A DNA stretch of 64,000 bases from Blasia pusilla (lineage: Eukaryota), in assembly GCA_050084515.1 (NCBI GenBank), contig CM114271.1, positions 31,992,001 through 32,056,000 of the forward strand. Reading direction: 5' to 3'. The notes beneath the pieces were generated by a model that did not search any database, was not told where the DNA came from, and saw nothing but the letters and a program-made list of their open reading frames with translations. Positions 19,202-64,000 of the stretch are shown here, piece after piece (the first letter of the stretch is position 1; each line of letters opens with the position of its first letter). The translations under genes and the position numbers were made by a program.

Positions 19202-20130
19202 TATATGTCAACCACCAGGTTTTGAGACACCCAGATCAAAAGAGAAAGTGTGTTTACTTCGTCGAGCCCCAATGGTATGGTATCAACAAATAGATATATT
19301 CTTCCAAGAGAAGGGTCTCATCAAGAGTCCGTCAGAAGCAAATTTGTATGTGTTTTGCAAAGATGGGATGTATATGTTGATAGTCCTATATGTGGATGAT
19401 CTTATCATCACAGAAGACCACAGTAAGAAAATAGTAGAAATGAAGGGAGTGTTGACATTTGAGTTTGAAATGTCAGATTTAGGTCTTTTGCACTACTTTT
19501 AAGGGCTGGAGATTTGGCAACAGTTTGATTCTATTTTTCTCTCTTGAAAAAATTATGCTAGAGAAATCTTGAAGGCATTCGGGATGACCGAGTGTAAGAC
19601 AATGGTCTCGCCAATGGAGGTAAAGTTGAAACTCTCGATGGAGGATGTTTCACCATTGGTAGATGAAAAGTTGTACAGAAACCTTGTAGGCAGTTTGATA
19701 TTTTTGTGTAACACTAGACCAGACATTAGCTTCGCTGTGGGAGTGTTGAGTAGGTTCTCAACTAAGTCTCGTGAGAACCATTGGAAGGCAGGGATGCATG
19801 TGTTGAAGTACATCAAATGCACTATCGAGTACGACATCACCTATGGAGCAGGGACGGAAATGACAGGTTTTTGTGACTCGGATTGGGCATGAGATTGAGA
19901 TTCTCGAAGATCAGTTTCGGGTTATTGCTTCTTGGTAGGATCAGGTGTGGTGTCATGGGTCAGCAAAAGGCAACCTACAGTGGCTCTTTCTTCTACCGAG
20001 GCAGAGTACAAGGCGGCTTGTTATGCTTCTTGTGAAGCACTATGGTTGAGATGGATATTGGAGGACATAGGAGAAGCACCAAAAAATGCTACTGTAATGT
20101 GGTGTGACAATCAAGGTTGCATTGCCATGC

Positions 20131-20340
20131 TGGATGAGCACCGCTCAAGCCCCAACATGCTCCAATCTCTGTGCAATTGGAAAGGACGCCCCCTGATCGG
20201 TCTCCTCAAGATGGGCGCGGACGTCAACCTGTCCTTGAGCAACTGAAATGCTCGCTCTTGCTCATCCCCCCAGTGCCATTCGTGATCCACCTTGGTTAGC
20301 AAGGTTAGCGGCTTCGCAGTCGAACTGAATCCCTTGACGA
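20131..20340 (-). mobile_element. Gypsy RT/RNase H connection fragment
   Basis: [34 protein letters not shown], near-identical to 60506-60660. Confidence 0.85.
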
Positions 20341-20407
20341 GACCGTGTTCTTCAACGTGCTAAGAGGTATCAATTGGAGGGAACACATATTCTCCGTGTG
20401 TGGGAGG

Positions 20408-30144: not shown

Positions 30145-30295
30145 TCTTCCTCGGAAGGCAATGGCCGGCCGTAGCAACCATCGCGATTTGCACTGCAGTA
30201 AATGAGTATTCATCCATAGTGTAGCAACACGCCGTCGTTCGTCAGTGGAGCAACAACTCGCATAATTCTGCTTTTGAGTTCCTTTGAGTACGAGT

Positions 30296-32325
30296 AGTGC
30301 CACATTTGGCTCAGAGAGAGCGCATTGTGCGACATGCCCATGAGGAGTTGGGACATTTTGGGGTAAAGCGTACGTATAGCTTACTCCTTGGCCAGTATTG
30401 GTGGCGTGGCATGCATACTCAGGTGCAGCAGTTTGTGTCACGTTGTATGGTTTGTGACCGGGTGAGGGCATCATTCAATGCCCCTACACCACAATTACAC
30501 CCCTTGCCTATTATGGGGTTGGGTTACCGTTGGAGTGTGGACTTTGCGGGACCGTTACCGTTGACTGTACAACATCATCGATATGTGTTGGTGATGGTGG
30601 AGCACTTCTCCAAGTGGATTGAGTTGGTGGCATTACCGGACAAGGCAAGTGAGGAAACGGCGTATGCGTTTCTTGATAGAGTGCTTAGTCATTTTGGTGC
30701 ACCAACTGAAGTGCTGACCGACCAGGGTACAGAGTTTCAGGGTGAATTTCAGGTCTTGTGTGACAAGGCGTTGATTGATCATCGGACCACGTCTCGAGAT
30801 CATCCGAGGCGGATGGTTTGGCTGGCGTGTGGTTCGGGACGGTGAAGAGGGCATTGCGCAAATATGGCCTCTGAAGGGCATCTTGGAGACCTAGGATATT
30901 CAGCTGCCATGGTTAGCCATGGGGTATAGGTTGATCGCCAAGCATCCTTGGCTTCCTTCTCATCTTATTTTTGTTATACGGCCGAGATCCGGACTTGCCG
31001 CAGAATTCGTCGGGAGTCTAGTGAGGTGGTGAACCTTGATGACCCAGAGATGTGGATGAGGATGTGTTCTCAGCGAGCGGAGCTCTTTCGGAGAGTTATG
31101 CCAACAGCCTTTGAGAATCTTGCCATTGCTCAACACAGGGATACGTTGCGGTATGCAACCATTCGGGGTGGAGGTTATCGACCATCGATTCGTAGGTTCC
31201 ATGTGGGGGACTATGTCTATTTGCAGCAGATTGCACCGACAACGTTGGATATGACGGCGGGCCGCACTATTTTACGAGTGCGCGAGGTGTTAGCTTCTGG
31301 AGTTCTCATGTTGGAGGGTCGTGATGGAGTTGTTTGGAAGGACCATGTGCGTAATTGTGCGCCATGTCATCTTCCAAATGTGGATGGTAGTGTTAACCCA
31401 AGCTTAGCCATGATACGTGCTAGTTTGAGGTGCATGTTGTGTGGGTCTGTTGGTAACGCAGCTCGTATGTTGGTGTGTGATCGGTGTTCTAGGGGTTGGC
31501 ACATGATGCGTTTGACTCCACGTATGGATGTTGTTCCTACTGGAAGGTGGGTTTGTCCTCGATGTACTTAGGAGAGGTAGATGACTTGATCTTTGCATGA
31601 TATGGATTACAGATGTGCGACTAACAATGGGGCAACCTAGCACCCGGCCTTCTGATTCGGGCACCCAAGAAGGAGTATAGCATGTAGTAGATGTATAGGG
31701 CTACCTAGGAGTTAGAGGGACCTAACCACCAATTAGGGGGCGAGTTGTGGTACACTTGTGTTTGTGGATGCTCTCGTCTATGTTATGTATGTATGTGAGT
31801 ATGGTATGTCAGCGATGTATGTTGTATGACGATGTGGATTCGCACGACAGCTGTCATGACCATACGGATTATGTCGTAGAGTATAGTGTGCTAGTAGAGG
31901 CCATTCCTTATGTAGGACCGTAGTGGCTTGGTAGAGATGCGGTTTCATACATAGGGTTGGGGGTTACTCAATTGGGGGTGACTTTCCCAGTAGGGCCCGC
32001 TCTTAGGTTGGAGGATATAAGGTGGAGTGCACTCAAAGAACAGTCAGTTCTTTGAGTTGAGCTTGTTGCGTTGGGAGTTAGCCTTGGTAGTGAGTAGAGC
32101 TCTTGGCTATGGTGTTTCCCGCAAGCTTCGACCTAGATTCTCCCATCGTGGAGTGGGTTTGGCTCGATTGTATGTGATTCTATACGTGTTTTATGACAGT
32201 AGGTCTTTCACGGATTTCAGTTGTGGTACACTTGTGTTTGTGGATGCTCTCGTCTATGTTATGTATGTATGTGAGTATGGAATGTCAGCGATGTATGCTA
32301 TATGACGATGTGGATTCGCACGACA
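30296..32325 (+). mobile_element. Gypsy-type family 1, 3' half: integrase + PHD finger, PPT and A-B-A terminal repeats
   Basis: HEELGH..C..C zinc finger, VDFAGP, TDQGTEF; C-terminal CxxC..CxxC..H..C..W.CxxC PHD-like ending at 31571; purine tract ~31731-31744; ends in ...GCACGACA. Confidence 0.9.
31744..32325 (+). repeat. Split direct repeat terminus A(31744-31849)-gc-B(31852-32219)-A(32220-32325)
   Basis: Two near-identical 106-bp A units; the 368-bp B unit matches 61957-62324 (minus). Confidence 0.93.
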
Positions 32326-32723: not shown

Positions 32724-34215
32724 CGTCTTTGCACCGTACTTGCTACTTTATGGCCGAGAGCCAGATTTACATGCGGCCATTCGTCAAGATGTTGGTGAGG
32801 TGCTGGACCTTGATGACCCAGATGTATGGATGCGAGCATGTTCTCATAGGGTTGAATTGTTTTGGAGAGTGATGCCCATGGCGTTCGAGAACTTGGCGAT
32901 TGCGTAGCATTAGGATACGTTGAGGTATGCGACTATTCGGGGTGGTGATTATCGACCAACTATCCGGAGGTTTCATCAAGGAGATTATGTCTACTTGCAG
33001 CAGACGGCATCGACGACGTTGGATGTGATTGCAGGGCGCACTATCCTGAGAATGCGTGACGTTTTGCCATCCGGTGTTCTCTTGCTGGAGGGACACGATG
33101 GTATGGCATGGAAGGACCATGTGCGTAATTGTGCGCCATGTCACCTTCCTAACATTGATGGTACAGTAGATCTGAGCTCAACAGTAGTTCTTGTAGGCTT
33201 GCGTTGTATGTTGTGTGGTTCTGCTCGTGCTGCGGCCACGATGCTAGTATGTGATGGATGTTCGAGAGGTTGGCATATGGCATGTCTGACGCCACCTTTC
33301 ACTAAGGTTCCTCGAGGACAATGGATGTGTCCCAGATGTACATAGAGGAGATATTAGGTAGGTTTCGATTCCAACTTTTTCTGTGACATGGATGATTGGA
33401 AGGCGACTAACGATGGGGCCACATGAGCACCCGGCCTTTATGCTCTTAGCATCCTAGAGATGTATGTCATGGTAGGTAGGGATAGATGGCTATCTGGAGT
33501 TAGAGGGACCTAACCACCAGCTAGTGGGGTGATTGGAGATATTTTGGTACTTCTCGCCTCTGTGTATGGATGTCATGAGTTAGCATGGGATCGTGTGTGT
33601 TTGTGTGTGTGTTCGATGACAGCGATGTATGTTGTGTAGCGATGTGTACACGCACGACACTTGTCATGATTATTAGGATAGATCAGTGGGATCTAGCAGA
33701 ATGTCTGCACGAATAGTGGAGGACAAGCCCATGATGTCGAGGATGATCTGTTGAAGCCCAGGGAAACCTGAGAGAGCAGGTTTCCCCTTCGTTTCGGCTC
33801 ATTTGGAGCCATATTGATGATCTTGCTATTTTAGGTAAGTACCATTTTGAGTATCTGATCGACTTTCTATTATTGGTACATGGTCCTTGACCTCCTACAT
33901 CAGGTCAAGAGCCAGGGAGATGACTTGGGAGAATAGGTTACCATAGAGAGAGCTTGGGAGAGGGGAGGGGTTTACCTCAAGGAGAGAGAGCTTGAGAGCT
34001 CATTCTCTCTTTATTGAACCTCTTAGCATGAGGCGTTGGAACTATGGTCTTGCTTGCCTTGTGTGTGTAACCCAAGCCTCTCATTAGGAGAGTGGTTTTG
34101 GTTTGACATTGAGAGAGACATATGAGAGTGCACACATGTGAGAACTATGGTATTGTGAGAGAGATTGGATCTTATTTTATTGGAGATATTTTGCTACTTC
34201 TCACCTCTGTGTATG
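32724..34215 (+). mobile_element. Gypsy-type family 2, 3' end: integrase C-terminus + PHD, A'(33532-33659)-ct-B'(33662-34178)-A'(34179-, cut by LINE)
   Basis: ORF 32920-33345 with an intact C4HC3 PHD; the same CACGACA-nn-TGTCATGA junction as family 1. Confidence 0.88.
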
Positions 34216-39500: not shown

Positions 39501-42201
39501 TTACGTGGCATAGACGTAGCATCGGGGAAGAAATAGAGCTTTTCGGCAAAAGATATCAAAGACTTGGGATCAAGAATAGGTTTGAAGACCGTACTAATAA
39601 CCGTCTCCAAAATGATTTGGGGTCCTCATGCAGCTCCCTTGTCAAGGACTCTTGTTTTCGCCGCAAGAAAGCTCGTTTCTTAGATTTCACCAAGTATTTG
39701 TAAAGGCTCGTCATAATAAGCCGACTTGGGATATCCAAAGATTTATCAGCTGCTCGTGCCCTTGCTTGCTTGCATTGAGTCAAACCACCCATTACAAGGC
39801 GACCTCCTAGCACTTCTATCCCAGTGGCGCGGAAAGAACTTAGATGCACTATTTTTGAGCAATTCCGTTAGTTGCATACTTGCCGTGTTTGGATCAGGGC
39901 TCCATACAATGCGAGTCAAGTGTTCTTGTAAATGTAGCATATAAAGATCTTTTTTACCAGGATCTAAGCGAAACTTGGGAGAAGCTAAAATAGATTGACA
40001 TGTCGAGAAAGGAATTTCCTTTGACGGTGAGAGAGTAAACAAGAGAGGTGCATGATCGATTCAGTGAGGTTCTAGAATATCAAATGTAGAGATAAGAGAG
40101 CTATCGTGCAAGCGAGACAGAAGATAATCGATGGTGCTAGCGCCAGAGAGGAGAAACACGTATTGGAGTGAGAGTTGGGAAAATGAGAGGTTCCATTAAG
40201 AACTTTCAAATTACAAGTGGCTCCAAAGGTTAAAAAATACTCTGTCAAAGGATTTGTAGAAAGATCTGAAGAGATTCTAGACCATAAACCATCCTCATAT
40301 TCTTCGAGAAGAGGAGAAATCAAGGAATCACTGAATTGGGTAAATTGAGCAGTACGTGTGCGAGCATTGAAATTTCCAACTAGAAAGACTTCACCTTTGC
40401 TTTGATATTTGAGAACATCCCCAATAAGTCGATGGAACGGTTGACTTCGATTGTGAGTGCGTGTTGAGTAGATAGGCATGGAGAGTGGTGCAAAATAACA
40501 AAGCGCCAAATAACAATAAGATCCCCAACCAAACCAAGGCGTAGCCAATGATATTGACCCCGATATCTTGATCTTCTAGATGAATGAGAGGTAGAAATTG
40601 AGACCTGATGAAAGTAGCAATACCGCCATAACCCCTTCCTGCCCGTTGCCTTCTTTGATTCCATGTCGATCCTACCAAAGTAAACCCTTGCATCTCTGCA
40701 ATAGTATTGCTCTCATGTTCCCAAGTGTCCACAATATTGATAATATCTGCCATCTCCCAAATTGGTAGAGCACTCACATACTTTGTTGTTGAAAGGCCTC
40801 GTATATTCCACATCTACACTCTCAGCTTCTTGGATTGCTAGGTTGATAACTCTCTTTTTCTCTGGGTAACAATTGCTCGTCCATCACGTAGATAAGCAAT
40901 AAAACCTGCTTCTTGAGCCTCTTTGACCTTTGCAAGCTCCTTTCTCCTAGCTTCGACTTGTAGAGGTGTGAGATTTGGATCCAACCATATCCTCCGTCCT
41001 TTGAGAATGGCCTTGTTAGCCATGGCAGTATCACGTTGAGTTTGATCAACAAACTTGACTAGAATGGCACGAGGTTGTATGCCCGTTTTCCCAATACGAA
41101 AAGCTTGAGCCAAGTCCGGGTTATGAACATGAAGTGTATCAACCAAGAACTTGGTGACAACACTCTTCACCTCTTCGCTCTCTGTTTTCCGGTAAACTGA
41201 GATTCTCACATTCTTTCTGGGCAAATTGGTTTTCTTTTTCTATCTCTTGCTCTTGTGAGAAAGAGATATGAGCAACCTTTGTAGCTTCAAAGATAAGATT
41301 TCATTTTCACTTCTAAAGTTTCAACAACCTCATGCAATCCTGAACTATTGGGAGTAGTCACCAAGGATGATGCCTTCTCTTGAACATCCCATAATAGATT
41401 TGGAAAAGATCCAAAGATCACACTAGAACTATCTTTCAACACTTTCTTCAGAACCTCTTGCGTTGCCTTCAACTCTCGGATTTGAATATGTGCATGGTTT
41501 AATTGAGAAGTTTGTACCTTGAATTCTTGTCGAAGCTCTTTAACTTCATGCAAGACGACTTGCACTAGATTCAAGATTTCGTCTTGAGTGGTCATCCTGT
41601 AGTCGACTTCACTGCATCCCAGAAAGTATAATTGAATCTCCAACACCACACAACTTCTGCTCTAGAAGTTGGTTGTACTTGAAATTTCTAGGATCAAGAC
41701 GTTTCTAGACATTCTACGTGGAGTCCAAATCTCAGCTTCATATGACACTCCACCTCAAAGTTATGGCCTCGGCAAGATTCAGATCTGAAATGCTCAAATC
41801 TAGAAGTGCAGAAACTCAAATCTCTCACAACTTCGTGTGTATAACTCGATTGTGCTTGCAAATCTGAGGGCTAGGGCACCTCTTTATACTCCACGTCGCC
41901 TCCAAATCTCAGCTTCATGTGACACTCCACCTCAAAGTTATGGCCTCGGAAAGATTCAGATCTGAAATGCTCAAATCTAGAAGTGCAAAAACTCAAATCT
42001 CTCACAACTTCGTGTGTATAACTCGGTTGTGCTTGCAAATCTGAGGGCTAGGGCACCTCTTTATACTCCACGTTGCCTCCAAATCTCAGCTTCATATGAC
42101 ACTCCACCTCAAAGTTATGGCCTCGGCAAGATTCAGATCTGAAATGCTCAAATCTAGAAGTGCAGAAACTCAAATCTCTCACAACTTCGTGTGTATAACT
42201 C
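39501..42201 (-). mobile_element. LINE copy 8, 5' half (3 monomers, ORF1, endonuclease), 3'-truncated
   Basis: Monomers ~41680-42201; ORF1 41595-40838; APE domain from 40813 downwards. Confidence 0.94.
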
Positions 42202-42399
42202 CATGAAACTGAAGATAAGAATATCCTCTATGTAATACTGTAGAAAATCCAAGCTAGCCAGAATCCTATCCATTCAACCCAAATGGAAAGAATTGTCATT
42301 AATTTAAACAATCTCTCCCTAACCAATCTATCCTCCAAAATTTTGTGGGGGCTACTGTTGATGTGAGCAATGACACTCACATTTGCCTCTTCTCAGCCA

Positions 42400-43345
42400 T
42401 ACGACCCATATCTAGCTAGACTCACTATCCATATTATATAGTTGAGGTCCATTTTCTGCCCCAACACTTGTCTCTATGATGCCTTTGATATATGTGGCAA
42501 CACTGTAGTAGCCATAGCAAACCCCATGGCACGGTCACTTTGATCAACAGCAGGCTCCTCAATTTCTCAAGTCTCCTCATTCCCTATCATGCTTGGCCGT
42601 ATGTGAAGAAAGGCACGGTATATTGGGAAGCTCACCAACGTAGGTGAGGCTGGCCTCAACTCCCCCTAACTATTGGCTATCGCCAACAATTGTCTATTAT
42701 TTTGCGACATCACATAAGCTTGACTCCCTGGACTCAAGATAGCATCCATTGTTTCGTGTGGTGCTCTTTGAATTCCATCATAAGCTCCTCTCAATACCTC
42801 CAATGGAAGAAGGTTTGTCCATCATAACCGTGGATGGTGTGTGTGCGATCTAACTCTCACCACATCCAAAAATATGGTAGGTTTCAACCATGACTTCACC
42901 TAATGCACAATCGTCATCATTTGTGCATTGTTATCTCCCAAAAATGGCTCGTTCTCCATAACGTATGTTGGAGTATAAGTTTGACTCTATTGCAAGTATT
43001 AGGACACTACCTGACCTTGGATACTGCAATCCAAACCCTCAACTAGCCAATGAATGACCTTGACATGGCCATCCATAAATCACCAAATGAATAGTGCCAA
43101 CTCTATCAAGGTCGTACGCCCCCAACAACAAAATGTTGGCGGGTTGTATGTGTTGATATCCTCCAATGCAGAGACCGCAAATAAGTAATGATACATGTGG
43201 ATCAACCTTGCCACATGGCGCAATAAGACTCGTCATGCGATCGCATCTTTCTCCATATAAAGGTATTGATGCACACATATGCTTCCCTCCAATACCGAAC
43301 CCAATCCCTTGCTGATCCCTTCAAAGAGATCTAACACTCTGACAT
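42400..43345 (-). pseudogene. Old, degenerate gypsy-borne C5 cytosine methyltransferase domain
   Basis: VRVLDLFEGISKGL (motif I), IHLVIYGWPCQGHS (motif IV), YVMENEP (motif VI), RAMGF..RQVLGQKMDLN (motifs IX/X); colinear with 59560-60505. Confidence 0.8.
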
Positions 43346-43964
43346 CCAATGGTGTCATCGCCTCCACTCTAGAAGCTCAATTGTCACTAAATTCCATCTC
43401 CTCCAAGATGAAGGAACAACTCCAGGCCTGCCTCATAAGGTTATTTGCACTCCTTTTCAAATCACAACTCATACCACAACCACAACGGTAAAGAGATTTT
43501 AATAGCATGGGAAGAGACACCCATCATGGCATGTCTCTCCATGGGACTATCCGCCATCAGGATGTCCTCTGCATGTGCATTCCCCTCCAACAACTCTCTT
43601 CACCCGTTAGCACCATTTGTATGTGCTCCCAACGTGATCACCGTATAGTCATGTGGTCAATCACCTCGTTCTGCAAATTGCACAAGTAACAAACTCATCC
43701 GAGCATAAGCAACGGACTCCTTAAAAAATCTAGGATGAATCTTAGGGGTTATAATATCGTATTATCTATTGACACATCGTATAACTTTGTTGTTGTAGCA
43801 ATCGCACATGTACGTACCATAGCACTATTCGTGTAATGCTCCGACTGAACTTTAACAACTACGTGTTGTTGAATGATGTACTACATGGGTGACAATTGAA
43901 GTGAGCCAAATTCAAAAAATGATAACCTCAACACAACCCTTCCTACCCATAAATGTTAAAATGA

Positions 43965-50459: not shown

Positions 50460-52650
50460 TGTCGTGCACATACACATCGCTACACAACATACATACATAC
50501 ATACATACATACATCGTTGTCAACGAACATACACACAAACACGCACGATCCCATGCTAACTCATGGCATCCAAATAACGAGACAAGAAGTACCAAAATAT
50601 CTCCAATAAATCAAGTAGATCTCTCTCAACATTTCACACCAATCTCTCCATGGTGTGCACTCTCTCTCATGTCAACCCAAACCCACTCTCCTAATGAGAG
50701 GCTTGGGTTACACACACAAGGCAAGCAAGACCATAGCTTTGCCACTTCATGCCAAGAGATTCAACAAAGAGAGAATGAGCTCTCAAGCTCTCTCTCTTGG
50801 AGGTATATCCCCTTCCCTCTCCCAAGCTCTCTCCTCAGTAACCTATGCTCGCAGGTCATCTCCTTAGATGCCATATGCCACTTTCTTGAATACCCATCAT
50901 ACACTAGCATAGTGGCTGCACCATGGGCAGAGCCGCACAACATGCATCGCAAGCTTGCACGAACTACTGCTAAGCTCGAATCAACTGTACCGTCAATGTT
51001 AGGAAGGTGACCTGACGCACAATTATGCACATGGTCCTTCCAAACCATACCATTACATCCCTCCAATAAGAGGATACCAGATGGCTAAACCTCACGCACT
51101 CTCAAGATAGTGCGCCCTATATTCACGTCCAACGTCGTAGATGCCGTCTGTTGCAAAATAGACATAATCTCTCTGATGAAACCTCCGAATAGTAGGTTGA
51201 TAATCACCTTCTCGAATAGCTGCATACCTCAACATATCCCAATGTTGCGCAATCGCCAAGTTCTCAAACGCCATGGGCATCACTCTCCAAAACAACTCAG
51301 CCCTCTGAGAGCATGCTCGCATCCATACATCAGGGTCATCAAGGTTCAACACCTCACCTACATCTTGATGAATGGCCGAAGGTAAATCTGGCACTCGGCC
51401 ATAAAGTAGCAAGTACGGTGAGAAAGATGTATGTTTGCTGAATATGTATCTCATCGCCAACTGGAGGTCCCAATCTCCTAGGTGACCTCTTTGCAAGCCA
51501 TAATTGCACAATCCTCTCTTCACCGTCTGCACAACCCTCTCCGCTAGTCCATCCGCCTTAGGATGATCCCGCAAAGTGGTGAGGTGGTTGATCATCGCCT
51601 AATCACACAAGGCCTGAAACTCCCCACAAAACTCTGTACCCTGGTCTATCAACACCTCAGCTGGTGCGCCGTAATGACTCAGCACTTTATCTAGGAAGGC
51701 ATACGCTACTCCCTCACTCGATTTGTCACGCAATGCAACCAAATCTATCCACTTCAAGAAGTGCTCGACCATCACCAACACATAACGACTATGGCGCTCT
51801 GTCAAAGGTAACGGTCTTGCAAAATCCAAACTCTATCTATAACCTAAACCCATGATCGAAAGTGGATGCAACTATGGAATCGGAGCATTGAACGATGCCC
51901 ATACCCAATCACAAACCATGCACATGGCAACAAACTGTTGAACGTCAGTCTTCATACCTCGCCACCAATACTATATCTGGAGCAAGTTGTACGTCCGCTT
52001 TACTCCAAAATGACCCAACTCCTCGTGGACATGACGTACCAAACATGCTCTCTATGAAGGATGAGGCACTACACATATTCTACCATCCTCCCAAACTTGC
52101 AACACATGTGTCCCCTCCCACCGGAACCGTCTGGCTAGCTGTAGGATCTGATCCCATTCTCTAGCATCCACTGTGCTCGCAACGCTGCTAGTACGCAAGT
52201 ACTCCAAGAGCACTCCATCGTCGTGCATGTCTCGGCCATCTGTCGTCTCCTCACCTGCCTCTGGATCTAAGGACTCTCCATCAGACCTCGCCATCGAAGT
52301 CTCAGCAATCTGGCTCTCTATGGCCAACAAGCCCAAATAGGATGACGCATGTCATCCTGGCATCAACTCCTCATCACTCTCACCATGCCAACGAGCTCTT
52401 GTCGCATCTCGCTGACTCGAGCATGGGTTAAGGCTCAAACCATCTGCATCTTGGTTGAGCGTCCCAGGTCTATGCACCACCTTGAAGTCATACTAGTGCA
52501 ACAAAAGAGCCCACCTCGCAAGCTTCCCTGTAAACTTGTCGGACTCCATCAACCACTTAAGTGGTTGATGATCAGTAATGATGGTAAAGGGGTTTCCGAG
52601 TAGTTAACACCTAAAATGTGTGACAACCCACACCGCATCCGAGCACTCTT
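50460..52650 (-). mobile_element. Gypsy-type family 2 copy: RNase H, integrase, truncated PHD, B'-A' terminus
   Basis: DFARPLP, IDQGTEF, DHPKADGLAERVVQT; a deletion joins PHD to B'; ends ...GCACGACA at 50460. Confidence 0.88.
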
Positions 52651-54100
52651 GTAATGTACAACTCAAGGAAAAAGATACCCTTTCTATCGAAAAGTATTAA
52701 GTTTGTTCCCAAGAGACCACTATTTCCTGAGTAAAGAGAGGCTTTATAAGAAATAACAAGAATAAATTCTATCTTCACTTAAAACGATTCACTAACTCTA
52801 ATAACTCTAACTTCACGAAGGTAAAGAAAAGATAAGATGGTCTTCTTTCCTCATAGAAAAGACTCTTCTCAAGTGTAGAGAAAGACTCTTGTGAATCTGC
52901 AATAACAAAACTCCACACAGACCTCAAAGAGACCTCGAGAATGGAGGCTCACCCTACTTTCAAAACTAAATCTGTCATGCCAGGTTACTCACTGTCTAAC
53001 AACTTTCCTACGCTTCTTCTTGATTATCTTTTGGGATTCTGAAACTACAAGACTCAACTCTCATCTCTACTATATCCCAATAAGATCTACATTTGATTCC
53101 GCACATTAGAAAGAATGAGAGAAGACTCTTCTTTACATCAAAGAGTGGAAAGAACTCGAAAGTAGAACAAGCTTCTGATAGCTTGGATCATCCCCCAACA
53201 AAACTCCTTACCCCCTCACCAAGATTACTCGTAAACTCAAGATACACAGAACTATATTGAGGAGTTCAAGATACAAGGGAAAATAATGATCCCTTCTTCT
53301 GCTAATTGCTCTTTAAATAGTATTTACAATTCCGATTAGTCTTCCTATTCTAATCTAGATTTCTAATTGATAATCATAACTCTTTGATTCTAATTCTCCA
53401 ACCCTCCATCTTGCTAAGACTGTTCATTGTCTTGGCGTTTCCTTTTCGCTCCCTTTTAAACTGCTGTAACCGCCATGACTCTCCCATTGTAGCTTCCAAA
53501 ACTGCCGCAATAGTTCAGTCTTCATAGATTTCGCGCTCTTCGCAGTTCTTCGCAAAGACTCTTCCTAGTCTTTGTAATCTTTATCTTGGCTATCCTATCT
53601 TCGCGCAAAGATTTATATCCTTCTACCATTGTGAAGAGTCTTTATGCACTTTCCTTCAGCTTTCTTCCAAACATTCTCTATCTTTCTATTCCTCTTTTTG
53701 ATACACTTGTCCACTTTTGTGAAGACTCTTTAACCTCTTCCGCTTCTTCCTCTTCCTTCTTTGAGTTCTTAGTCTTTGCTCTGGAGTCTTCATCCTTGTT
53801 TTCAAGTCTTTGTACAAAGACTATCTTCCATCTCCTTTACAAAGAAGCTTTCCTTTAGTCTTTGTTGAGAGTCCTTTACATTGTTCTTTCTACAGTCTTC
53901 CTTGCGAAGCACCCACAATTCCTCTAACTTCTTTTCCTATCTTTTCCTACTTTTACACAATTCTCACTCTTCCAAGACAGTCCTTAATCTTCTAACATCT
54001 CTTTTCCTCTCATGAGAGTTCTGTCAATTACTCCTCTCACACAATTTCAGTAAAGTAAGACCCTTTACTTCTAGTAAAGGGTCTTGTAAAGGGTCTTACT
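52651..54100. other. Unclassified low-complexity (CT-rich) insertion ending in a hairpin
   Basis: Interrupts the gypsy on the left and a LINE monomer on the right; recurrent AAGACTCTT words; no recognisable domain. Confidence 0.35.
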
Positions 54101-55412
54101 TTGAGAGATTTGAGTTTCTACTTTTCTAGATTTCAGGATTTCAGATGTGAATCTTGCGGAGGCCATATCTTTGAGATGGAATGTTCAATGGAGCTGAAAT
54201 TTTAAGGAAACATGGAATGTAAGGAGACGCCCTAGCCCTGCAAATTGCAATCATAAAAAAGTTACACAGACGAAGTTGTGAAAGATTTGAGTTTCTGCTC
54301 TTCTAAATTTTAGGATTTCATATCTGAATCTTGCGGAGGCCATATCTTTAAGTTGGATTGCTTTATGGAGCTGAGATTTTGAGACAACGTGGAATGAAAA
54401 GATATGCCTTAACCCTAAAAATTTCAAGCATAATGAAGTTACAAAGACGAATTTGTGAGAGATTTGAGTTTCTGCTCTTCTAGATTTCAGGATATCATAT
54501 TTGAATCTTGCGGAGACCATATCTTTGAGATGGAGTGTTTTATGGAGCTGAGATTTGGAGGAAACGTGGAATATAAGGAGATTTCTTAGTCTTAAAAATC
54601 TTAAGTACAACAGAGTTACACAGACGAAGTTGTGAGAGATTTGAGTTTCTGCTCTCTAGATTTAAGGATTTTAGATCTGAATCTTGCGGAGGTCATATCT
54701 TTAAGGTGGAGTGTCATATGAAGCTGAGATTTTGAGAAACGTGGAGTGTAAAGAGGAGCCCTAGCCCTAAACATTGTAAGCTCAAATGAGTTACATAGAC
54801 GAAGTTGTGAGATATTTGAGTTTCTGCTCTTCTAGATTTCAGGTATTCAAATCTGAATCTTGCGGAGGCCATATCTTTGAGGTTGAGTGTCATATGAAGC
54901 TGAGATTTTGAGACAACGTGGATTATAAGGAGGAGCCCTAGCCTTGAAAATTGCAAGCACAACTAAGTTACACATAACAAGTTGTGAGAGATTTGAGTTT
55001 TTGCTCTTCTAAATTTTAGGATTTCAGATCATAATCTTGTAGAGGCCATATCGTTGACGTGGAGTGTCATATGAAGCTGAGCTTTTGAGACAAGATGGAA
55101 TGTGAAGAGGTGCCCTAATCCTGCGAATTTCAAGAACTACCAACTTCTAGAGTAGAAGTTGTGTGGTGTTGGAGATTTGGTTATACTTTATTGGAGGTCG
55201 TGCAATATCTAGGATGTAGTGACGTCGACTACATGATGACTACTCAAGACGATATCTTGAATCTAATGCAAGTGGTCTTGCATGAATTGAAAGAGTTTCA
55301 AATATAATTCAAGGTATAAACTTCTCAATTAAACCTTGCACATATTCAAATCCGAGAGTTAAAGGCAACGCAAGAGGTTTTGAATTAAGTGTTGAAAGAT
55401 AGTTTGAGTGAT
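54101..55412 (+). mobile_element. Older LINE 5' end: about 6 diverged ~177-bp monomers plus ORF1 start
   Basis: GTTACACAGACGAAGTTGTG recurs at ~54261, 54438, 54614, 54790 and 54967, then MTTQDDILNL. Confidence 0.9.
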
Positions 55413-58053
55413 ATAAATGGTAAATAATAAATGGTAAATAGATCAAGCCCGTGGGACCCAAAGGGTCAAAAGGCTGAAAAACACATTACAAGTCATTCAT
55501 TGACTGACCTTGAAAAAGATCCTTAAGACATTCTCCTAGCTACAACCTAGAGCACTTGAGCGATGAATGATGACGTCCCTAATATAACAACCTAAATCAT
55601 AAGGCACTAGCTGTAGTAAAGAATAGAAATTCTCCACATCTATTTTATGAGCTAGTCTTATTTCTCCATACCTTGGACATGTAACAAACACATGCTCTTC
55701 ATCCTCAATATTTTTTCCGTCACATATATGAGACCCAGTTCTATGATGTGCGATAATATGTCGTAAGAACGTGGAGATCCCCGCAAGTAGGTATCCTTGT
55801 TCACAATATACAAGCATAGGATTAACATGAAGTTGATAAAACTCCATTTTGGTGCCCGCACTGCTCCAAATGATGTTGAGAGATTGCTTCTGTAGATGCT
55901 CACGGAGGGCCATCGGTTTCAAGTCCCAATCGCGTTCTGCCACATTCCTCTTTGAAGACCAAGTTACCACATCCGCCATCCACCCTATGGAACGTGTGGC
56001 TCGCAAAGCTTGATAAGGGAGGCGAGAAACATCAAGAGATCTCACCCTTGCGATGTAAGTGATGGTCAAATAAAGAGCTTCAGCTTCTAGAGGAAGAAAA
56101 CTTGTTTCCGCAAGAAGAATAGCATACGGAGTTTGGTTTTTTACACCCAATTCTTCTTGTAGAAAGATCTTTTGCACTCTTTCCACACGCTCCCAACCTG
56201 TCTTCTTACAACTAGGGCCCCAAACTTGGGTCCCATATAAGACCACCGGTAACACTAAGCTCCTAAATAAGAATTTCCTTAGACTCCAAGACACAAGATG
56301 AGCTCTTCTACACCGGTTTAAAAATGAATATAGAGCTTTGTAACCAGCTTCTACTCTCTTTTGCACGCAAAGTGCCCAACTATAGTCATGAGAGAAATCG
56401 ATGCCTAAATATTTGTAACTCTTCACTTGTTCTAATTGTAGACCTTTGTAAAAGAACGAGAACTTGGATCTAGTACCCACTATAATGACTTTAGACTTGT
56501 CCATATTAACCTCCATCTGATTCTGGGTACAAAACCTTGCCAAAGTGTCGAGGTGCTTTTGTAAACTAATGCCATCACGTGCTAGTAATATGATATCATC
56601 TGCATACAATAGAGCTTTGATGACAAAGTCCCCAAGCTTGACCCCTTCACTATCACATTCCTCCAACCACTTTTCGATATCATCTATGAAAACTCCAAAA
56701 AGTGTAGGGGAGAGAGGGCAACCTTGAATGACTCCAATGGTGCTCAAGATCTCTTGAGTTTGTGAACCTTTGATCTTGGCCCGAACGGAATGGTATAACG
56801 TGGCCACATCTGCTAGGAGATTTTGTGGAACTCCAATGGCTTGCAGCCTTTCCCATAAGAGCTTGCGAGGTACAATATCAAAAGCTTTCTTGAAATCGAT
56901 GAAGTCGCAAAACAAAGCTTTTCCATTGCCCTTAGATTTCTCCCATAAAACACGCAAGGCCAAGATATGATCGATGGTGTTGTATGTTGGACGAAAACCA
57001 GCTTGGACCAGTGCTCTCTTTTGGAAAGACTCTGTCCATGTGCTCAACTTCGACTCCACCAATTTCCCAAACAACTTGGCAAAAACACTACCCACCATGA
57101 TAGTGCGATAGTTTGTTACCAAGTCCTTCCTTCCTGATTTGTGAATAGGGACAATCTCCCGTAGCGACCAGGTTGAAGGAAAACCATAGATAACAGCATC
57201 ACCCAATAATTTGGTGAGGATCGGTCCAATACAATCTCCTCCCCGCTTGAAAAGTTCAATAGAAAGACCATCCAAATAGAAAGACCATCCAAAGCAAAGG
57301 TGAAGTCTTTCTAGCTGGAGATTTCAATGCTCGCACACGTATTGCTCAATTTACCCAATTCTGTGATTTCTTGATTTCTCCTCTTCTCGAAGAATATGAG
57401 GATGGTTTATGGTCTAGAATCTCTTCAAATCTTTCTACAAATCCTTTGACAGAGTATTTTTTAACCTTTGGAGCCACTTGTAATTTGAAAGTTCTTAATG
57501 GAACCTCTCATTTTCCCAACTCTCACTCCAATACGTGTTTCTCCTCTACCGGCGCTAGCACCATCGATTATCTTTTGTCATCGCCCGTTGATAGCTGTCT
57601 TATCTCTACATTTGATATTCTAGAACCTCAGCCTGAATCAGATCATGCACCTCTCTTGTTTACTCTCTCACTGTCAAAGGAAATTCTTCTCTCGACATGT
57701 CAATCTATTTTAGCTTCTCCCAAGTTTCGCTTAGATCCTGGTAAAAAAGATCTTTATATGCTACATTTACAAGAACACTTGACTCGCATTGTATGGAGCC
57801 CTAATCCAAACACGGCAAGTATGCAACTAACGGAATTGCTCAAAAACAGTGCATCTAAGTTCTTTTCGCGCCACTGGGATAGAAGTGCTAGGAGGCTGCC
57901 TTATAATGGGTGGTTTGACTCTGAATGCAAGCAAGCAAGGGCACGAGCAGCTGATAAATCTTTGGATATCCCAAGTCGGCTTATTATGACGAGCCTTTAC
58001 AAATACTTGGTGAAATCTAAGAAACGAGCTTTCTTGCGGCGAAAACAAGAGTC
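55413..58053 (-). mobile_element. LINE copy 9 with an inverted 5' segment
   Basis: Minus-strand RT ORF 55536-57275 with tail at 55413; plus-strand endonuclease/linker piece ~57290-58053. Confidence 0.93.
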
Positions 58054-58610
58054 AAGGTCAACTAGATGACAACAAACAGGGCTTTTCGGTTTACTACGCC
58101 GGACGGCAACTCTCTTCGGCGGAACAGAAATATACAACCACCGAACGAGAGGCGCTAGGCATGGTCTTCTCGTGTAAAAAGTTTCGACACTATTTATTGG
58201 GTTACGAATTTATTGTCCATGTCGACCATTTCGCGCTCAAACCATTAATGGTAAAGGCGGACTTGTCCGGTCGTATTGCGCGATGGATCCTTCTGCTCCA
58301 AGAATTCAGATTCGATGTGGTTACCCGTGCCGGCAAGGTGCATACAAATGCCGATTTTCTTTCCAGGTTAAGGATGACGAACACGGACCTCACCCACTCC
58401 GTCAATGATACCTTTCCCGACGAAGACCGGTTGTGCAAGTCCTTTTATGAGGATATTTTGCGTTTCTTAATTACTTTGCAACTTCCAGGCCCCATGACAG
58501 CGGAGGAGCGCGCAGTTTTCTTACATAAGATAGGACCATATGAGATATGTCAGGGGATCCTATTCAAATTAGGTGCGGATGAAGAGTATCGACGATGCTT
58601 GGAAGCAGAC
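58054..58610 (+). mobile_element. Host gypsy RNase H region
   Basis: YYAGRQLSSAEQKYTTTEREAL..FRHYLLG..DH..RIARW..NADFLSR. Confidence 0.9.
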
Positions 58611-59400
58611 TACCGGACGCGGAATAAGTGCAATAGCCTCCACCTTTGCTTGCTGAACTCCCAAACCATTTGGATAGATCACATGATCCAAGTACTCAAC
58701 ATCCTCATGGAAGAACTTACACTTTCCTGGATGCAAACGTAGACCATGAGCTTTCAACCGCTCAAACACCATCTGCAAATGTATCTGATGCTCCTCCACC
58801 GTGTTACTGAACACCTAGATATCATCAATGTAACACCGAACAAAATCCAACCCTCCTAGGATCCTGTGCATCACTCTCTCAAACTCGGCAGGTGCATTCT
58901 TCAACCCAAAGGGTAAGAATTTCCACTGGTATAAACAATCCTTGCCATGAGAGTTGACACCCCAAAATGCTGTCTTGGCCTTGTCACTCTCCCGAATCGG
59001 AAATTGATGGTATCGTGCCCGAAGATCCAAAGTACTGAAAATCTTTGCGTGTCCCACCACATCAAAGATCTCCTCAAGTGTAGGCATGGCATACCTATCG
59101 GCCTTGGTTTGCCGATTGATAGGACGGTAATCTCCACACATCCGCCTATCCGTGTAGTTGCCATGCATATCCTTTTTAGTAGGCATGACAGTGGCTGATG
59201 CATACTCTCCATGCGACAACTCCACTAATCCAGCCTCCAAAAGGTCAACATCCTACTCTGAATCAGTTCCCTCTCCATATCACTATATCGGTAGGGACGA
59301 CGGAAGATTGGCGTATCACTAGCCAAATCAATCCGTATACCGGGTCCAATCAGAGAACCCAACTCCTTCATGCTAAAAGCAAAACAACTCCTATAGCACG
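58611..59400 (-). pseudogene. Gypsy reverse transcriptase, directly downstream of the DNMT domain
   Basis: RMCGDYRPIN, LDLRARYHQ, PFGLKNAP, YIDDI. Confidence 0.93.
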
Positions 59401-59559
59401 TAGGAACTGTGTCAAGCGTCGTTTCTCACCTCCCGTAAGCTTGGGCCCAAGTAATGGCTCCCAAGTCTCCTCCACTGGCACACTAGAGGGAGAGGACGAT
59501 GCCATTGGCTGCTACGCAACCCCCTCACAAGATGGTACATCCTTAGCTACACCATCATC

Positions 59560-60505
59560 TTAGCAAATAACTCCTTCAGCAGCATGAGCAACCAACTCCA
59601 CATGCCCGGCCATTACATCCCATTTACTCCAAGGATGCAAAATACTACTCTCCTCGCCCCCAGCCGATGCTTCTACCGTCCCGGTAGCCATCGAGCTCAT
59701 TACAAGGGGTGGAAGACCCACAGACATAGTCCGAAGTCGACGCTGCTCGGCCATACCAAGACTCAAAATCCAAGTCAAACAATTCAGGTCCATGGCCTGA
59801 CCCAACACATGACGTCGTGAAGCCTCAGAAATAGAAGCAACCGCTGTCACACCAGTAGCAAATCCCATCGCACGCTCTCTCTCTCATCAGCGTTAGGCTC
59901 CACCAACTATCGCACATGAGAATCCCATACAAGCCCCGGACCACCTTCCCTGTAGGCATGTGACGAGGGAAAACTCACAAATGTGGGTAGTGCCATCCTA
60001 GGCTGGCCCACACGGTTCACCACTGCCATGGATGACCGATCAATAACCCTCACCACCTGAGAAAGTCGCCCAGTATCCAAGATACTATCCACTGTAAGGC
60101 AAGGATCCCGCTGCACTGCATCATATGCTCGACGTAGAACCTCCCTAGGCCATAAGTTTGTCCAGCACAAGCGTGGACAATGTGCACGCGAGCCAACTCG
60201 CGCTGCATCCAACAACACCGCTGGTCCAATCCAAGACCGCACCTCATGAACACTCGCCATCATCCGGGTCCGAGTGTCACCCAACAATGGAACATTCTCC
60301 AGAATGTAAGCTGGAGCACGTGCCTGATGAACCTGAAGATGTCGTAACACCCGTAACATCTCCCAAAACAATCGAGACCTAGGGTCGTGTAATCCCTTAC
60401 CACGACCTGCACGTGTATGAACCTGACATGGGCACCCAGCAATCACCAAATCCACAGGACCAACCCTCTCAAGGTCCTGCGCCCCCAACAATGCAATGTG
60501 TGACA
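59560..60505 (-). pseudogene. C5 cytosine DNA methyltransferase domain within gypsy pol
   Basis: VDLVIAGCPCQ (motif IV, catalytic PC), DPRSRLF, YILENV (VI), SRAHCPRL (degenerate VIII), ERAMGF (IX), RRHVLGQAM (X). Confidence 0.9.
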
Positions 60506-62324
60506 GACGCCCCCTGATCGGTCTCCTCAAGATGGGCGCGGACGTCAACCTGTCCTTGAGCAACTGAAATGCTCGCTCTTGCTCATCCCCCCAGTGCCAT
60601 TCGTGATCCACCTTGGTCAGCAAGGTTGGCGGCTTCGCAGTCGAACTGAATCCCTTGACGTTCCGCCGCTAGAAGTTTGCCAATCCCATGAATGCGCAAA
60701 CACAACTCACATTTGTAGGGCGTGGAATGCGTGAGATAGCCTCTACCTTTGTCTGTTGAACACCAAGGACCCTTGGGTATATTGTATGACCCAAGTACTC
60801 AATCTGGTCGTAGAAGAACTTGCACTTTCTTGGATGTAGCTTCAGCCTAAGTAATTGCAATCGTCGAAACACCTCCTCTAGATGTCGCTCATGCTCCTTA
60901 ACCGTGGCGCTAAAGACTACGATGTCATCAATATAATACCTAGAAAAATCCAAACCAGCCAAGATCCTATCCATGACCCTCTGAAACTCAACCGGGGCGT
61001 TCTTTAACCCAAATGGTAAGAACCGCCACTGGTACAAACAATCCTTCCCGTGAGGATCGATGCCCCAAAATGTTGTCTTTTGCATGTCCTCCAATCTGAT
61101 AGGCAGCTGATGGTATCTAGCTTGCAAATCCAATGAACTGAAAATCTTTGCGTGACCAATTGCATCAAAGATCTCCTCAGGGGTGGGCATGGCATACCTA
61201 TCGAACTTCGTCTGCCGATTGATAGGTCGGTAATCCCTACACACCCGCCTATCCGTCCAGTTGCCATGCACATCCTTCTTGGCAGGCATGACAGTGGCAG
61301 ATGCATACTCCCCATGCAACATCTCTACTAGTCCTAGCTCCTAATCTGAATCAGAGCCCTCTCCATATCACTATACCTGTAGTCACCAACCAACTAGACC
61401 CTCCGGTCCGCTGTCCACCATAGCTAGTCCGCAAAATTTTGATCGACAATTACTTCACAAAAAATCAGCTACAACCGAGCTCTGTACTCCGAGCTAAAAA
61501 TCAGACAAACTTGCTGTCCATACACCTCCAGAATCGCAAATCCGACAGCGCTTCCGCCAAGTTTCATGCGCACAAAAATCCGCAACGCTCCACACACTCG
61601 AGCAGATAGCTTCACATGAGATCACAATACAAGTAGCAATAGGAACCTCTCACCCAATCTAGATGAACTTCAACAGAGCTTCCGCACTCCAAGCTCTCCA
61701 CATCAGAAAACCGTCGAACACGAACCAGAATCTTCAATCCTCGATAACTTCCAACTACCTTGACGAAATCCGGCAATCTAAGACGCCTTGGAAAGCTCTT
61801 AGCAAGGCGCTTCCTTCCAACCAACCACGCACCAGATTCACACCTCCAACATAGGCCACAAGCCACGAACATCCATGGCTGAGTACACAATCAGCCCTAA
61901 CAAGATCCTACTGATCTACAATCGAAGCTACCATCGATCTACTCCAGTTCTTTGAGTGAAATCCGTGAAAGACCTACTATCATAAAACACATATACAATC
62001 ACATACAATCGAGCCAAACCCACTCCACGATGGGAGAATCTAGGTCGAAGCTTGCGGGAAACACCATAGCCAAGAGCTCTCCTCACTACCAAGGCTAACT
62101 CCCAACGCAACAGGTTCAAGTCAAAGAACTGACTGTTCTTTTAGCGCACTCCACCTTATATCCTCCAACATAAGAGCGGGCCCTACTGGGAAAGTCACCC
62201 CCAACTGAGTAACCCCCAACCCTATGTATGAAACCGCTTCTCTACCAAGCCACTACGGTCCTACATAAGGAATGGCCTCTAATAGCACACTATACCCTAC
62301 GACATAATCCGTATGGTCATGACA
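60506..62324 (-). mobile_element. Gypsy-type family 1, 5' half: terminal B repeat, leader, (gag deleted), RT and connection domain
   Basis: B 61957-62324 starts TGTCATGAC; RT ORF 60669-61322 with YIDD; flanked by the GCAG TSD shared with 32326-32329. Confidence 0.9.
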
Positions 62325-63046
62325 CTGCCCATTGGAATTAGTAAGTGATCGGGGCACTCACTTCTTAAACAAGACTATTGAGTCTCTCACTTCCCACTTT
62401 TTGATTAAGCATCGGAAAACCACGCCCTACAACCCTAAAGCCAACGGGTTGACGGAAAAATCTAACGGCCTGATCTGCCGGATATTGAATCGATTGACGG
62501 TCACCTATTCCTATGATTGGGACATGAAAATCTCCGCGGCATTGTGGGCATACCAAACAGCGGAGAAGGTCACGACAAAGCATACCCCGTTCTTCCTGAC
62601 TTATGGCGTTCATCCCTTAACCCCTATTGAATGGGCTTTGCCCACTTATCGAGTACTGGAAGGAACGAGAACGGAGGCCGTCAACAAAGTTTTCCAAGGA
62701 AGGAATGAGACCTTAGTTGCGTTGGAAGAAGCACGCACGTTGGCGTTACGCTAGACGAAACAGGTGCAAAAAGCACGCAAACAACGTTACGATCGACATC
62801 TCCGGCCACAATCTATAAGCGTGGGAGACTTGGTGCTGTTGTACGATAACCGGCGACTCAAGTTCCCCGGAAAATTAAAATTAAATTGGATGGGGCCCTA
62901 CTGGGTATTGGCCATCTATGATAATGGATCCCTAGAGTTGGGGACCTTAAAGAGAGAATCCCTGCCCACGCGGGTCAATGGAATGCATGTGCGTCAGTAT
63001 TATGAGCCTCAACCTTATGCGGACTGAAACAGGAGGAAGGGGGGTA
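62325..63046 (+). mobile_element. Host gypsy integrase C-half and purine tract
   Basis: CPLELVSDRGTHF, YNPKANGLTEK, TPFFLTYG, GDLVLL..KLKLNWMGPY; AGGAGGAAGGGGGG after the stop at 63027. Confidence 0.9.
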
Positions 63047-63244
63047 AGCGAATGCCTCTAGCTTCGTAGCTTAGCGAAGAGCAAAGAGCAAAGCAGGACG
63101 AAGTGAAAAGCGAAGCAGCAAAGCGCGACGGTTCTTGAAGAGCGAAGGGCGAAGCGCCAAACTAACTGTTGCAGTTCCAACGCCAACAACAACAGCCAAG
63201 CGGGGACTATATAAGCGTCCTTATGGAACCAGACAGGTCATTTC

Positions 63245-64000
63245 ATGGACAGGGTAAACAAAAAGTTGCGGAGCAGACCAAAGCGCGGCGTTCACCGAGC
63301 GCGACGTACAGCCATGCCTCGCGAAGACTCCACGCCCATTCTGCAAATTGCGGCAATGCCGATGGTCAAGTTGTTCCCCGAGCTGGTCGAAGCACTGGAA
63401 GCGAGCTCTTTGGCGACGTTCTTTCAATCCAATTGGACACTAACATCAGGAGAACTCCTCGGAGAGCTTCATTCCTCAACGGCAGCAGCCAAGTTTCAGA
63501 AGAAGGGTCTTTGATATCGCGCACAACCCCAACAGTGGACGCTGGATGATTGGCGAGCCACGTACATGCTTCCGGCTGCCCCAGAGTATGAGTACAATAC
63601 TCAGCTCTTGGTGAAACACGAAGAATTGTTGGCACTCGGCTGTGTCATGTCTGATCGTCTGGGCAGGAATGGTTACAAGGCTACATCGCTGTCTCCACCA
63701 TTATTTGGATAGTTTTGTGAGCATGTGATGACGTTATTTTACCCAGCTCGATCTTACTACCTAACCAACAAGCTCGTCAAGATTTGTTACCTTCTTTGGA
63801 ATCAGCACTTGGATCCCGAGGCGCCGGGAGTCGACTTTGCTTCCTTTGTCGACGGGAACGTACGAAACATGCTGGAGGTGCTTCATCCAAGCACGAAGTC
63901 ATACTTATCGCCTTTTGTAATCCATCTGTATCTTCATAAGCAGGAATTGACGTCGGACGAAGCACTCGAGTGGTCGCAGGTCACTCCGGTTCGCTTACCA
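63245..64000 (+). pseudogene. Possible extra ORF downstream of the host gypsy integrase, function unknown
   Basis: ATG-initiated 63245-63514 followed by further coding-like sequence with stops; no motif recognised. Confidence 0.3.

Follow-up and report, generated by a model that had tools for sequence, protein, structure and literature searches.

Retrotransposons that carry a DNA methyltransferase (DNMT) of their own have been described from dinoflagellates and, as KnitGypsy-Dnmt3, from the charophyte Klebsormidium nitens (de Mendoza 2018, PMC5890265), and the same account reports that SymbioDIRS-Dnmt3 methylates CG de novo in yeast. A 2026 preprint (10.64898/2026.05.21.726589) still gives the known case as "streptophytes (Gypsy-DNMT3)." PHD fingers are for their part known in retrotransposons of Chlamydomonas, where the available descriptions name REM1 (Perez-Alegre 2005) and Gypsy-7a_cRei (PMC9940879). 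We analyzed a stretch of 64,000 nucleotides from contig CM114271.1 of Blasia pusilla, referred to throughout as the window, in which the minus strand from 60503 to 58611 joins a C5 methyltransferase to a reverse transcriptase (RT). A sequence-only reading of the window had pointed to DNMT-carrying elements from dinoflagellates and Klebsormidium, which agrees with de Mendoza 2018. The piece almost certainly belongs to a bryophyte Ty3/gypsy long terminal repeat (LTR) retrotransposon family carrying a DNMT3-type methyltransferase; the copy at 60503–58611 is a dead internal fragment of such an element, truncated and mutated. For the whole explanation, in which the dead piece, the layout of its family, and the action proposed below are taken together, we estimate a probability of roughly 0.85.

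The methyltransferase is recognizable in the minus-strand open reading frame (ORF) 60668–59910, which matches PF00145 with 38.3 bits and an E-value of 1.4e-9 (Pfam; cut-off 22 bits) across profile positions 62–120 only. This ORF starts as the connection between RT and RNase H of a gypsy element, with RT_RNaseH_2 positions 1–29 matched just ahead of the PF00145 part, and switches abruptly to a C5 methyltransferase at about 60505. The switch marks the beginning of what we call fragment B, whose methyltransferase part (59581..60503, minus strand; Pfam, tblastn, and motifs read directly) is DNMT3-like and consists of motifs IV–X only: motif IV reads A-G-C-P-C-Q (PCQ at 60431–60423), motif VI ENV (60299–60291), motif VIII S-R-A-H-C-P-R-L-C-W-T-N (60191–60156), motif IX E-R-E-R-A-M-G-F (59883–59860), and motif X G-Q-A-M-D (59802–59788). 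The sequence-only reading had named motifs IV, VI, VIII, IX, and X and had them run on the same strand into a gypsy RT; all of them can be read, the RT occupies 59463–58611, and the Pfam check that it proposed gives the score just quoted. The fragment is colinear with residues 949–1254 of the Marchantia polymorpha protein P0006 (tblastn; 77% identity over residues 949–1157 and 67% over residues 1155–1254). Its continuation on the same strand comprises an RT N-terminal region (59463–59246) and an RVT_1 match (59252–58815; E 1e-14, Pfam), and the resulting Ty3/gypsy RT, designated RT2 (58611..59463, minus strand; colinear with P0008 residues 696–941 by tblastn), is truncated at 58611/58610.

The window copy begins after motif III, so that the S-adenosylmethionine (SAM)-binding motifs I–III are missing (alignment and tblastn), as is everything else upstream of motif IV, and there is no start codon. 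Fragment B contains two premature stops, an in-frame TAG at 59909–59907 and a copy-specific stop at 59562–59560, and its frame shifts within a (GA)n run near 59880; motifs IX and X lie after the TAG and the frameshift. The catalytic motifs PCQ and ENV are kept in 14 of 14 aligned rows including the window copy, in which we also find a Trp-to-Cys exchange beside PCQ and an Arg-to-Cys exchange in motif VIII; the latter reads H-C-P-R here and H-R-x-R in each of 12 further rows, a count that leaves out the Sphagnum row P0021, where the alignment has a gap. Because of the truncation, the premature stop, the frameshift, and the Arg-to-Cys exchange, the window copy is incapable of the methylation and integration roles proposed for its family, and the local copy in itself is ordinary genomic debris.

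The family is far better represented elsewhere. A protein search with the window DNMT gave 32 matches among 2105 longer candidate proteins, the best relatives being 73–79% identical and mostly from M. polymorpha, with Calypogeia fissa, Sphagnum, and unnamed proteins also present; judged by the names of these nearest proteins, the hosts are land plants, namely liverworts and Sphagnum. The protein cluster atlas returned only generic PF00145 clusters. The Marchantia models P0008 and P0009 show the order DNMT, RT, RNase H, and Marchantia sequences supply a gag with CCHC knuckles, a D-S-G protease (PR), and a complete DNMT with motifs I–X followed by RT. The metagenomic protein P0185 combines CCHC, PR, DNMT, RT, RNase H (RH), and integrase (INT) in one ORF of 2327 amino acids (aa). 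Scanning metagenome contigs with P0006 turned up 211 related stretches; 80 loci were retained from these, and 17 long ones were mapped for domain order. The arrangement gag-PR, DNMT, RT/RH, INT, PHD is colinear on one strand in 14 of the 17, counting L007, L009, and L051, whose contigs break off within the PHD; the remaining three (L005, L010, and L012) stop earlier at a contig end, and none of the 17 has a different order. The suggestion of the sequence-only reading that methyltransferase and integrase-fused PHD belong to the same lineage is thereby borne out, as both occur in one element in these 14 loci; in addition, L056 carries the DNMT plus a PF00628 finger (37.2 bits). LTR-like direct repeats of 307–344 bp with 88–94% identity were found in five of 11 loci tested (L003, L028, L056, L078, and L066) and a 159-bp repeat pair in a sixth (L046), with no pair in the five others of these 11 and none at the window fragment; the repeat-flanked loci give an element length of approximately 9.1 kb. 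A complete element would be composed of an LTR (~340 bp), gag with a CCHC knuckle, PR, the DNMT3-type domain, a stop, RT, RNase H, integrase, PHD, and a second LTR. One metagenome contig holds, at L066:922–6081 (minus strand), a much more divergent element with DNMT before RT followed by INT and PHD, its DNMT being 38% identical to P0006; the main family is represented on this contig as well, so that one genome harbors at least two families of this kind.

A conserved in-frame stop separates DNMT and RT. In the window it stands at 59514–59512, in frame with the DNMT C-terminus and within the context TAG CAG CCA (59506..59514, minus strand), a candidate readthrough site common to the window and 50 metagenome loci. 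When 11 loci were translated from the end of the DNMT to the start of the RT, the stop fell at the same column in nine, the other two having lost the frame. Of the 54 rows returned by a pattern scan, three are chance matches; the remaining 51, made up of the window and 50 distinct loci, share the conserved context. Among these 51, TAG serves as the codon 36 times and TAA 15 times. Immediately after it, the window has the six bases CAGCCA, while 49 loci have CAACCC and one has CAACCT. Termination at the equivalent residues is also seen in P0004 and P0006, two M. polymorpha models, and DNMT and RT occupy one frame in the metagenome loci (locus coordinates). With a conserved stop in a shared frame, Gag-PR-DNMT is the first product encoded, the DNMT being the last domain of the first reading frame, and RT-RH-INT-PHD would need readthrough; what is seen directly is the stop, and its readthrough is implied. 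UAG-CAR-YYA is a leaky-stop motif of plant viruses, and we take the UAG CAG CCA of the window to fit it.

Against solved structures in the Protein Data Bank (PDB), P0006 matches DNMT3A/B/C best (1.7e-8), followed by M.HaeIII (0.001) and plant DRM (0.0026), and a profile of 15 family members matches DNMT3A at 8.5e-17, M.HhaI at 3e-9, DRM at 5.9e-6, and DNMT2 at 0.037, with no DNMT1 in this profile search at E up to 1. Motifs I to X follow in linear order in a 14-row alignment, not circularly rearranged as in DRM, and F-x-G-x-x-x-G (motif I), PCQ, ENV, H-R-x-R, E-R-E, and G-Q/N-A-M-D are kept across 13 aligned family members. By these sequence comparisons the family enzyme is DNMT3-like. An exhaustive HMMER search for DNMT relatives retrieved 1474 representative proteins with E up to 0.001, 373 of them reaching 1e-10, and layouts were surveyed over 248 proteins. 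The DNMT lies behind RT/RNase H or ahead of integrase in 102 of the 248, with the full RT-DNMT-INT-PHD in 51 of those, and ahead of RT, as in the window, in 17; 129 have no second marker (128 DNMT alone, one INT-PHD). Those proteins of the RT/RH-DNMT-INT layout that bear names are from green algae (Scenedesmus "pol," Monoraphidium, Haematococcus). In an unrooted DNMT tree of 58 rows, obtained by a quick search, a branch with SH-aLRT 99 sets the 26 rows of the RH-DNMT-INT layout apart from the rest, and the window copy falls in a 12-row clade (support 100) with M. polymorpha, Calypogeia, and Sphagnum. Sphagnum rows are interspersed among the liverwort rows of this tree, and one stretch encoded by locus L003 matches Sphagnum fallax P0031 at 100% identity; the dS of about 0.6 between the window and Sphagnum-like loci could reflect slow evolution or horizontal transfer between bryophyte lineages.

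Comparison of the window DNMT with nine loci gave ratios of nonsynonymous to synonymous substitution (dN/dS) of 0.22–0.32 (median 0.255) at dS 0.56–0.67, and RT2 against four loci gave 0.15–0.20. Since such comparisons pair one dead copy with another, the living lineage will have a lower ratio than these values. The family DNMT evolves under constraint (dN/dS ~0.25).

Transcription was followed by mapping raw RNA reads of two runs (X22 and X23), which bear the same species label as the best-matching DNA run, on 55300–64000. Pairs with the first mate on the plus strand reach a depth of 26–60 over 58501–60537, with 0–5.6 in the other direction, and the depth drops to 0 at 58210–58500 and to 0.6–9.6 over 60538–61410. 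Reads run in opposite directions over the two oppositely oriented halves of a long interspersed nuclear element (LINE) at 55536–58069, and this fits a stranded library with sense transcripts. Reads 95–99% alike to the window make up 917 of 961 (X22) and 813 of 855 (X23), so that they stem mostly from paralogues. Nine X22 reads pass 60503 into upstream DNMT sequence, hand-translated as A-I-R-G-Y-Q-R-A-L-P, like Marchantia; because reads continue beyond the ends of fragment B, more complete relatives must be transcribed. Paralogues in the same organism are thus transcribed in sense. Paralogous reads entering at 60506 continue as normal RNase H and those at 58610 as normal RT, and loose read ends occur on both sides of 60503–60506; since reads that pass or enter at the ends of fragment B continue as normal domains, both ends are local breakpoints.

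Further pieces of the lineage are scattered over the window. Fused to fragment B at 60503–60506 is fragment A (60506..61382, minus strand), composed of another RT (RT1; RVT_1 1.7e-28) and the first ~50 residues of RNase H (RT_RNaseH_2 positions 1–29), and representing another subfamily of the same family, as RT1 and RT2 share only 74% nucleotide identity. Its final 155 bases (60506–60660) are 98.7% identical to 20185–20339, with sharp ends on both sides, one of which falls at the junction where the DNMT fragment was rearranged; the match indicates that fragment A belongs to a young subfamily. The matching part is contained in a small RNase H piece of this subfamily at 20030..20341 (minus strand; tblastn P0058 residues 1615–1712). 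A second, strongly decayed copy at 42206..43470 (minus strand; tblastn P0006 residues 828–1197 at 37%, P0008 residues 337–694) retains the whole DNMT, with motif I, and after it the beginning of RT: motifs I–III lie within 43470–42414, with a motif I-like ORF at 43233–43376, and the RT piece occupies 42361–42206, after which the copy is interrupted by 177-bp satellite and LINE sequence. Neither ORF piece of this copy has a Pfam match. The cut before motif IV against a foreign RT/RNase H fragment, the second decayed copy, and the conserved stop had all escaped the sequence-only reading.

RNase H, integrase, and a decayed PHD of the same lineage are found at 50872..52666 (minus strand; tblastn P0058 and P0093), 6 kb downstream of fragment B on the same strand, with about 105 residues missing between RT2 and this RNase H. 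We considered 52666–50872 and fragment B as a single insertion and did not adopt it, the link not being established across the missing ~105 residues. The PHD behind this integrase, near 50900–50990 within 50761–51084, is decayed, with cysteines replaced by tyrosine, and has no Pfam match. Better preserved are an integrase (H2C2 and rve) with terminal PHD at 30246..31568 (plus strand; Integrase_H2C2 1.5e-17, rve 4.2e-16) and an integrase C-terminus with an intact C4HC3 PHD finger at 32731..33342 (plus strand; Pfam and tblastn), which adjoins an inverted integrase fragment at 32323–32742 (minus strand). That related copies end in a PHD finger, as had been noticed before, holds for both: PF00628 matches 30930–31568 at 1.5e-8 (34.9 bits) and 32914–33342 at 1e-11 (45.1 bits; cut-off 24). 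DNMT-RT-INT proteins rank first among matches of the window integrases, with P0206 at 65.5% identity for 30246–31568 and Sphagnum fallax P0031 at 80.5% for 50872–52666, and algal relatives follow after; to the full-length loci, the integrase frames are 74–85% and the PHD frames 53–84% identical. No Chromo (chromodomain) match was obtained in the Pfam scans, the integrase C-terminus bearing the PF00628 PHD instead. The solved PHD fingers nearest to that of the window are those of CHD4, PHF12, KDM5A/B PHD1, PHF21A, ATXR5, and AIRE (PDB matches). Fingers of this type are readers of histone H3 unmodified at lysine 4 (H3K4).

From this layout we infer a mode of action for the family, with self-methylation of complementary DNA (cDNA) and PHD-guided integration as its two parts. 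Lying in the Gag-PR frame ahead of the stop, the DNMT would be made in Gag-like amounts and released by the protease; it may then methylate the new cDNA or fresh insertion of the element, as proposed for other DNMT-carrying retrotransposons, an idea that draws on the de novo CG methylation by SymbioDIRS-Dnmt3 in yeast. The PHD of the integrase might tether integration to chromatin with unmodified H3K4, like the chromodomains of chromoviruses. We regard this mode of action as tentative, at somewhat less than even odds. A broader view would see an old green-lineage Ty3/gypsy clade with its own DNMT3-type enzyme and a PHD of the kind that reads unmodified H3K4, transcribed and constrained in bryophytes, in which the enzyme moved into the Gag-PR frame before a programmed readthrough stop and, made in Gag-like excess, methylates its own cDNA or insertions as the PHD-integrase picks silent chromatin; this we hold to be speculative, and rather doubtful in its entirety. 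If true, a land-plant transposon would write part of the methylome of its host.

Several observations weigh against so complete a picture. Decay has affected each of the 80 metagenome loci, in which no open frame exceeds 545 aa, and an intact full-length bryophyte element was not seen. The RNA evidence stems mostly from paralogues and not from the window copy itself, and the 60503–60506 junction is not bridged by any listed independent contig. Among the metagenome loci themselves dN/dS is 0.45–1.13 (median 0.64), as expected of neutral decay after insertion; comparisons among these copies reflect recent decay and were set aside as uninformative on constraint. A CpG-depletion footprint of extra self-methylation was not found: observed/expected ratios are 0.66–0.84 for DNMT-family pieces (0.41 in the old copy) and 0.53–0.61 for the LINE and copia copies of the window, so that CpG depletion was rejected as a sign of self-methylation, the DNMT-family pieces being no lower than the other transposable elements. 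The stop context CAA CCC of the metagenome loci deviates from CAR-YYA at the last base, and covariation lends no support to an RNA structure predicted downstream of the stop (term 0.06; double changes in 3 of 26 pairs). Enzymatic activity of family members is a prediction, and for KnitGypsy-Dnmt3 the yeast assay reported in PMC5890265 gave no methylation, a result that its authors term inconclusive.

That yeast result, together with the lack of extra CpG depletion in the window copies and the location of the DNMT domain in the Gag-PR frame rather than in Pol, would also suit a DNMT kept for another role, be it RNA methylation, action on host chromatin around insertions, or service as a noncatalytic DNA-binding or structural module of the Gag-PR product. 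We consider this improbable, as motif I, PCQ, ENV, H-R-x-R, and motifs IX and X are kept in the 13 aligned members, which argues for a working C5 enzyme, and the closest solved relatives are the DNA enzymes DNMT3A/B/C and not the tRNA enzyme DNMT2 (0.037). Co-option by the host, with the piece as a domesticated gene in which a transposon methyltransferase serves the plant, could draw on the sense-strand RNA reads over fragment B and on the annotation of M. polymorpha copies as genes. It is highly unlikely for a window copy that has lost its SAM-binding half, carries stops and a frameshift, and has no start; the reads, 95–99% alike to the window, come from many paralogues, and copies are numerous in each genome (18 M. 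polymorpha proteins found, 211 related stretches in the metagenome scan).

Finally, DNMT and RT might lie side by side by accident, a host DNMT3 pseudogene having ended up next to a gypsy fragment, given that broken elements form a mosaic here, with breakpoints at 60503–60506 and 58610/58611. This has practically nothing left in its favor and is already refuted: the second window copy, the M. polymorpha proteins, and the 2327-aa ORF of P0185 have the same DNMT-RT order and spacing, all 17 long loci keep the order up to the point where their contigs end, with 14 extending through the full layout, and a contig of another organism's DNA run (X2, record 14) spans the DNMT-RT boundary (59125–59906). 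The sequence-only reading, which had raised a chance fusion as what would undo its claim, was correct in treating the two as one element.

The window contains other features of its own. Exons of an E2 ubiquitin-conjugating enzyme (45940–47363, minus strand; weak UQ_con matches), read as UBC13-like, include a 113-bp piece duplicated at 46117–46229 and 46236–46348 (73% identity), and some 2.5 kb downstream of these exons comes the decayed DNMT copy. The sequence-only reading had thought the presence of the element next to a land-plant-type gene notable; the E2 gene, which stands beside the second decayed copy, indicates a plant-like genome and is no evidence of a functional link. Tandem arrays of a 177-bp unit occupy 54030–55212 and 41635–42204, each next to a LINE-like 5' part and each immediately downstream of a gypsy-DNMT fragment. 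LINE copies (Exo_endo_phos and RVT_1) number at least six, at 1216–4176, 7575–10066, 21147–24269, 25989–27854, 35786–37862, and 55536–58069; the inverted joint between the oppositely oriented halves of the last (57277/58053) also occurs in a contig of run X2, and this LINE has sense RNA reads. A decayed Ty1/copia element (gag, integrase, RVT_2) lies at 15677–19499 (plus strand) beside an ORF with a SWIM zinc finger (15026–15316, minus strand). RNase H and integrase pieces of more distant gypsy elements, 28–42% identical to the DNMT family, are found at 58059–58547 and 62323–63027 (both plus strand).

Transposons bearing the enzyme that hosts use to silence them are rare, and in the green lineage the DNMT-carrying kind has been documented so far in one charophyte alga; it now extends to land plants, including M. 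polymorpha, a genetically tractable model liverwort with rich methylome data. The layout, with the DNMT in the Gag-PR frame, a stop, and a PHD on the integrase, together with transcription and constraint, makes it testable what a retrotransposon gains from its own DNMT. We found no description of a DNMT-carrying gypsy element in liverworts or mosses in the literature, where supplements, figures, and subscription journals could hold one. The main text of de Mendoza 2018 mentions neither Marchantia nor liverworts, and one of its supplements lists Physcomitrella and Selaginella, not Marchantia; one supplementary file of PMC12344493 names neither Marchantia nor Sphagnum.

The closest described relative is KnitGypsy-Dnmt3, with which, going by its published description, the bryophyte family shares a DNMT3-type, nonrearranged domain in the coding region of a streptophyte gypsy element, conserved catalytic residues, and purifying selection. 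It differs from KnitGypsy-Dnmt3 in its land-plant hosts and in having ordinary LTRs, whereas DIRS-like repeats are described for KnitGypsy-Dnmt3 (PMC5890265), and probably also in the position of the DNMT between PR and RT ahead of a conserved stop and in the PHD terminating the integrase; no K. nitens protein was among the matches of our DNMT protein searches. SymbioDIRS-Dnmt3 and SymbioLINE-Dnmt of Symbiodinium are likewise retrotransposons with their own DNMT, but as described they belong to other orders (DIRS and LINE) and another host kingdom and are without integrase or PHD. Green-algal gypsy polyproteins, such as the "pol" of Scenedesmus sp. PABB004 (KAF8056149.1), and numerous unnamed proteins from metagenomes combine a homologous DNMT (35–50% identity) with integrase and PHD; unlike the window family, they place the DNMT between RNase H and integrase (RT-RH-DNMT-INT-PHD), an arrangement of which our literature searches found no description. 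REM1, Gypsy-7a_cRei, and the chromoviruses share a chromatin reader on the gypsy Pol or integrase that is thought to steer integration, although the descriptions consulted for REM1 and Gypsy-7a_cRei mention no DNMT and chromoviruses use a chromodomain, none of which was matched here. Animal DNMT3A/3B provide the nearest solved catalytic domains and share the motif VIII signature S-x-A-H-R-A-R-x-x-W-x-N; in contrast to them, the family enzyme has no PWWP or ADD domain and lies in a Gag-PR polyprotein, with an H3K4-type reader on the integrase. On the present comparisons, the bryophyte family is best described as a land-plant addition to the known Gypsy-DNMT3 kind, with a distinctive layout.

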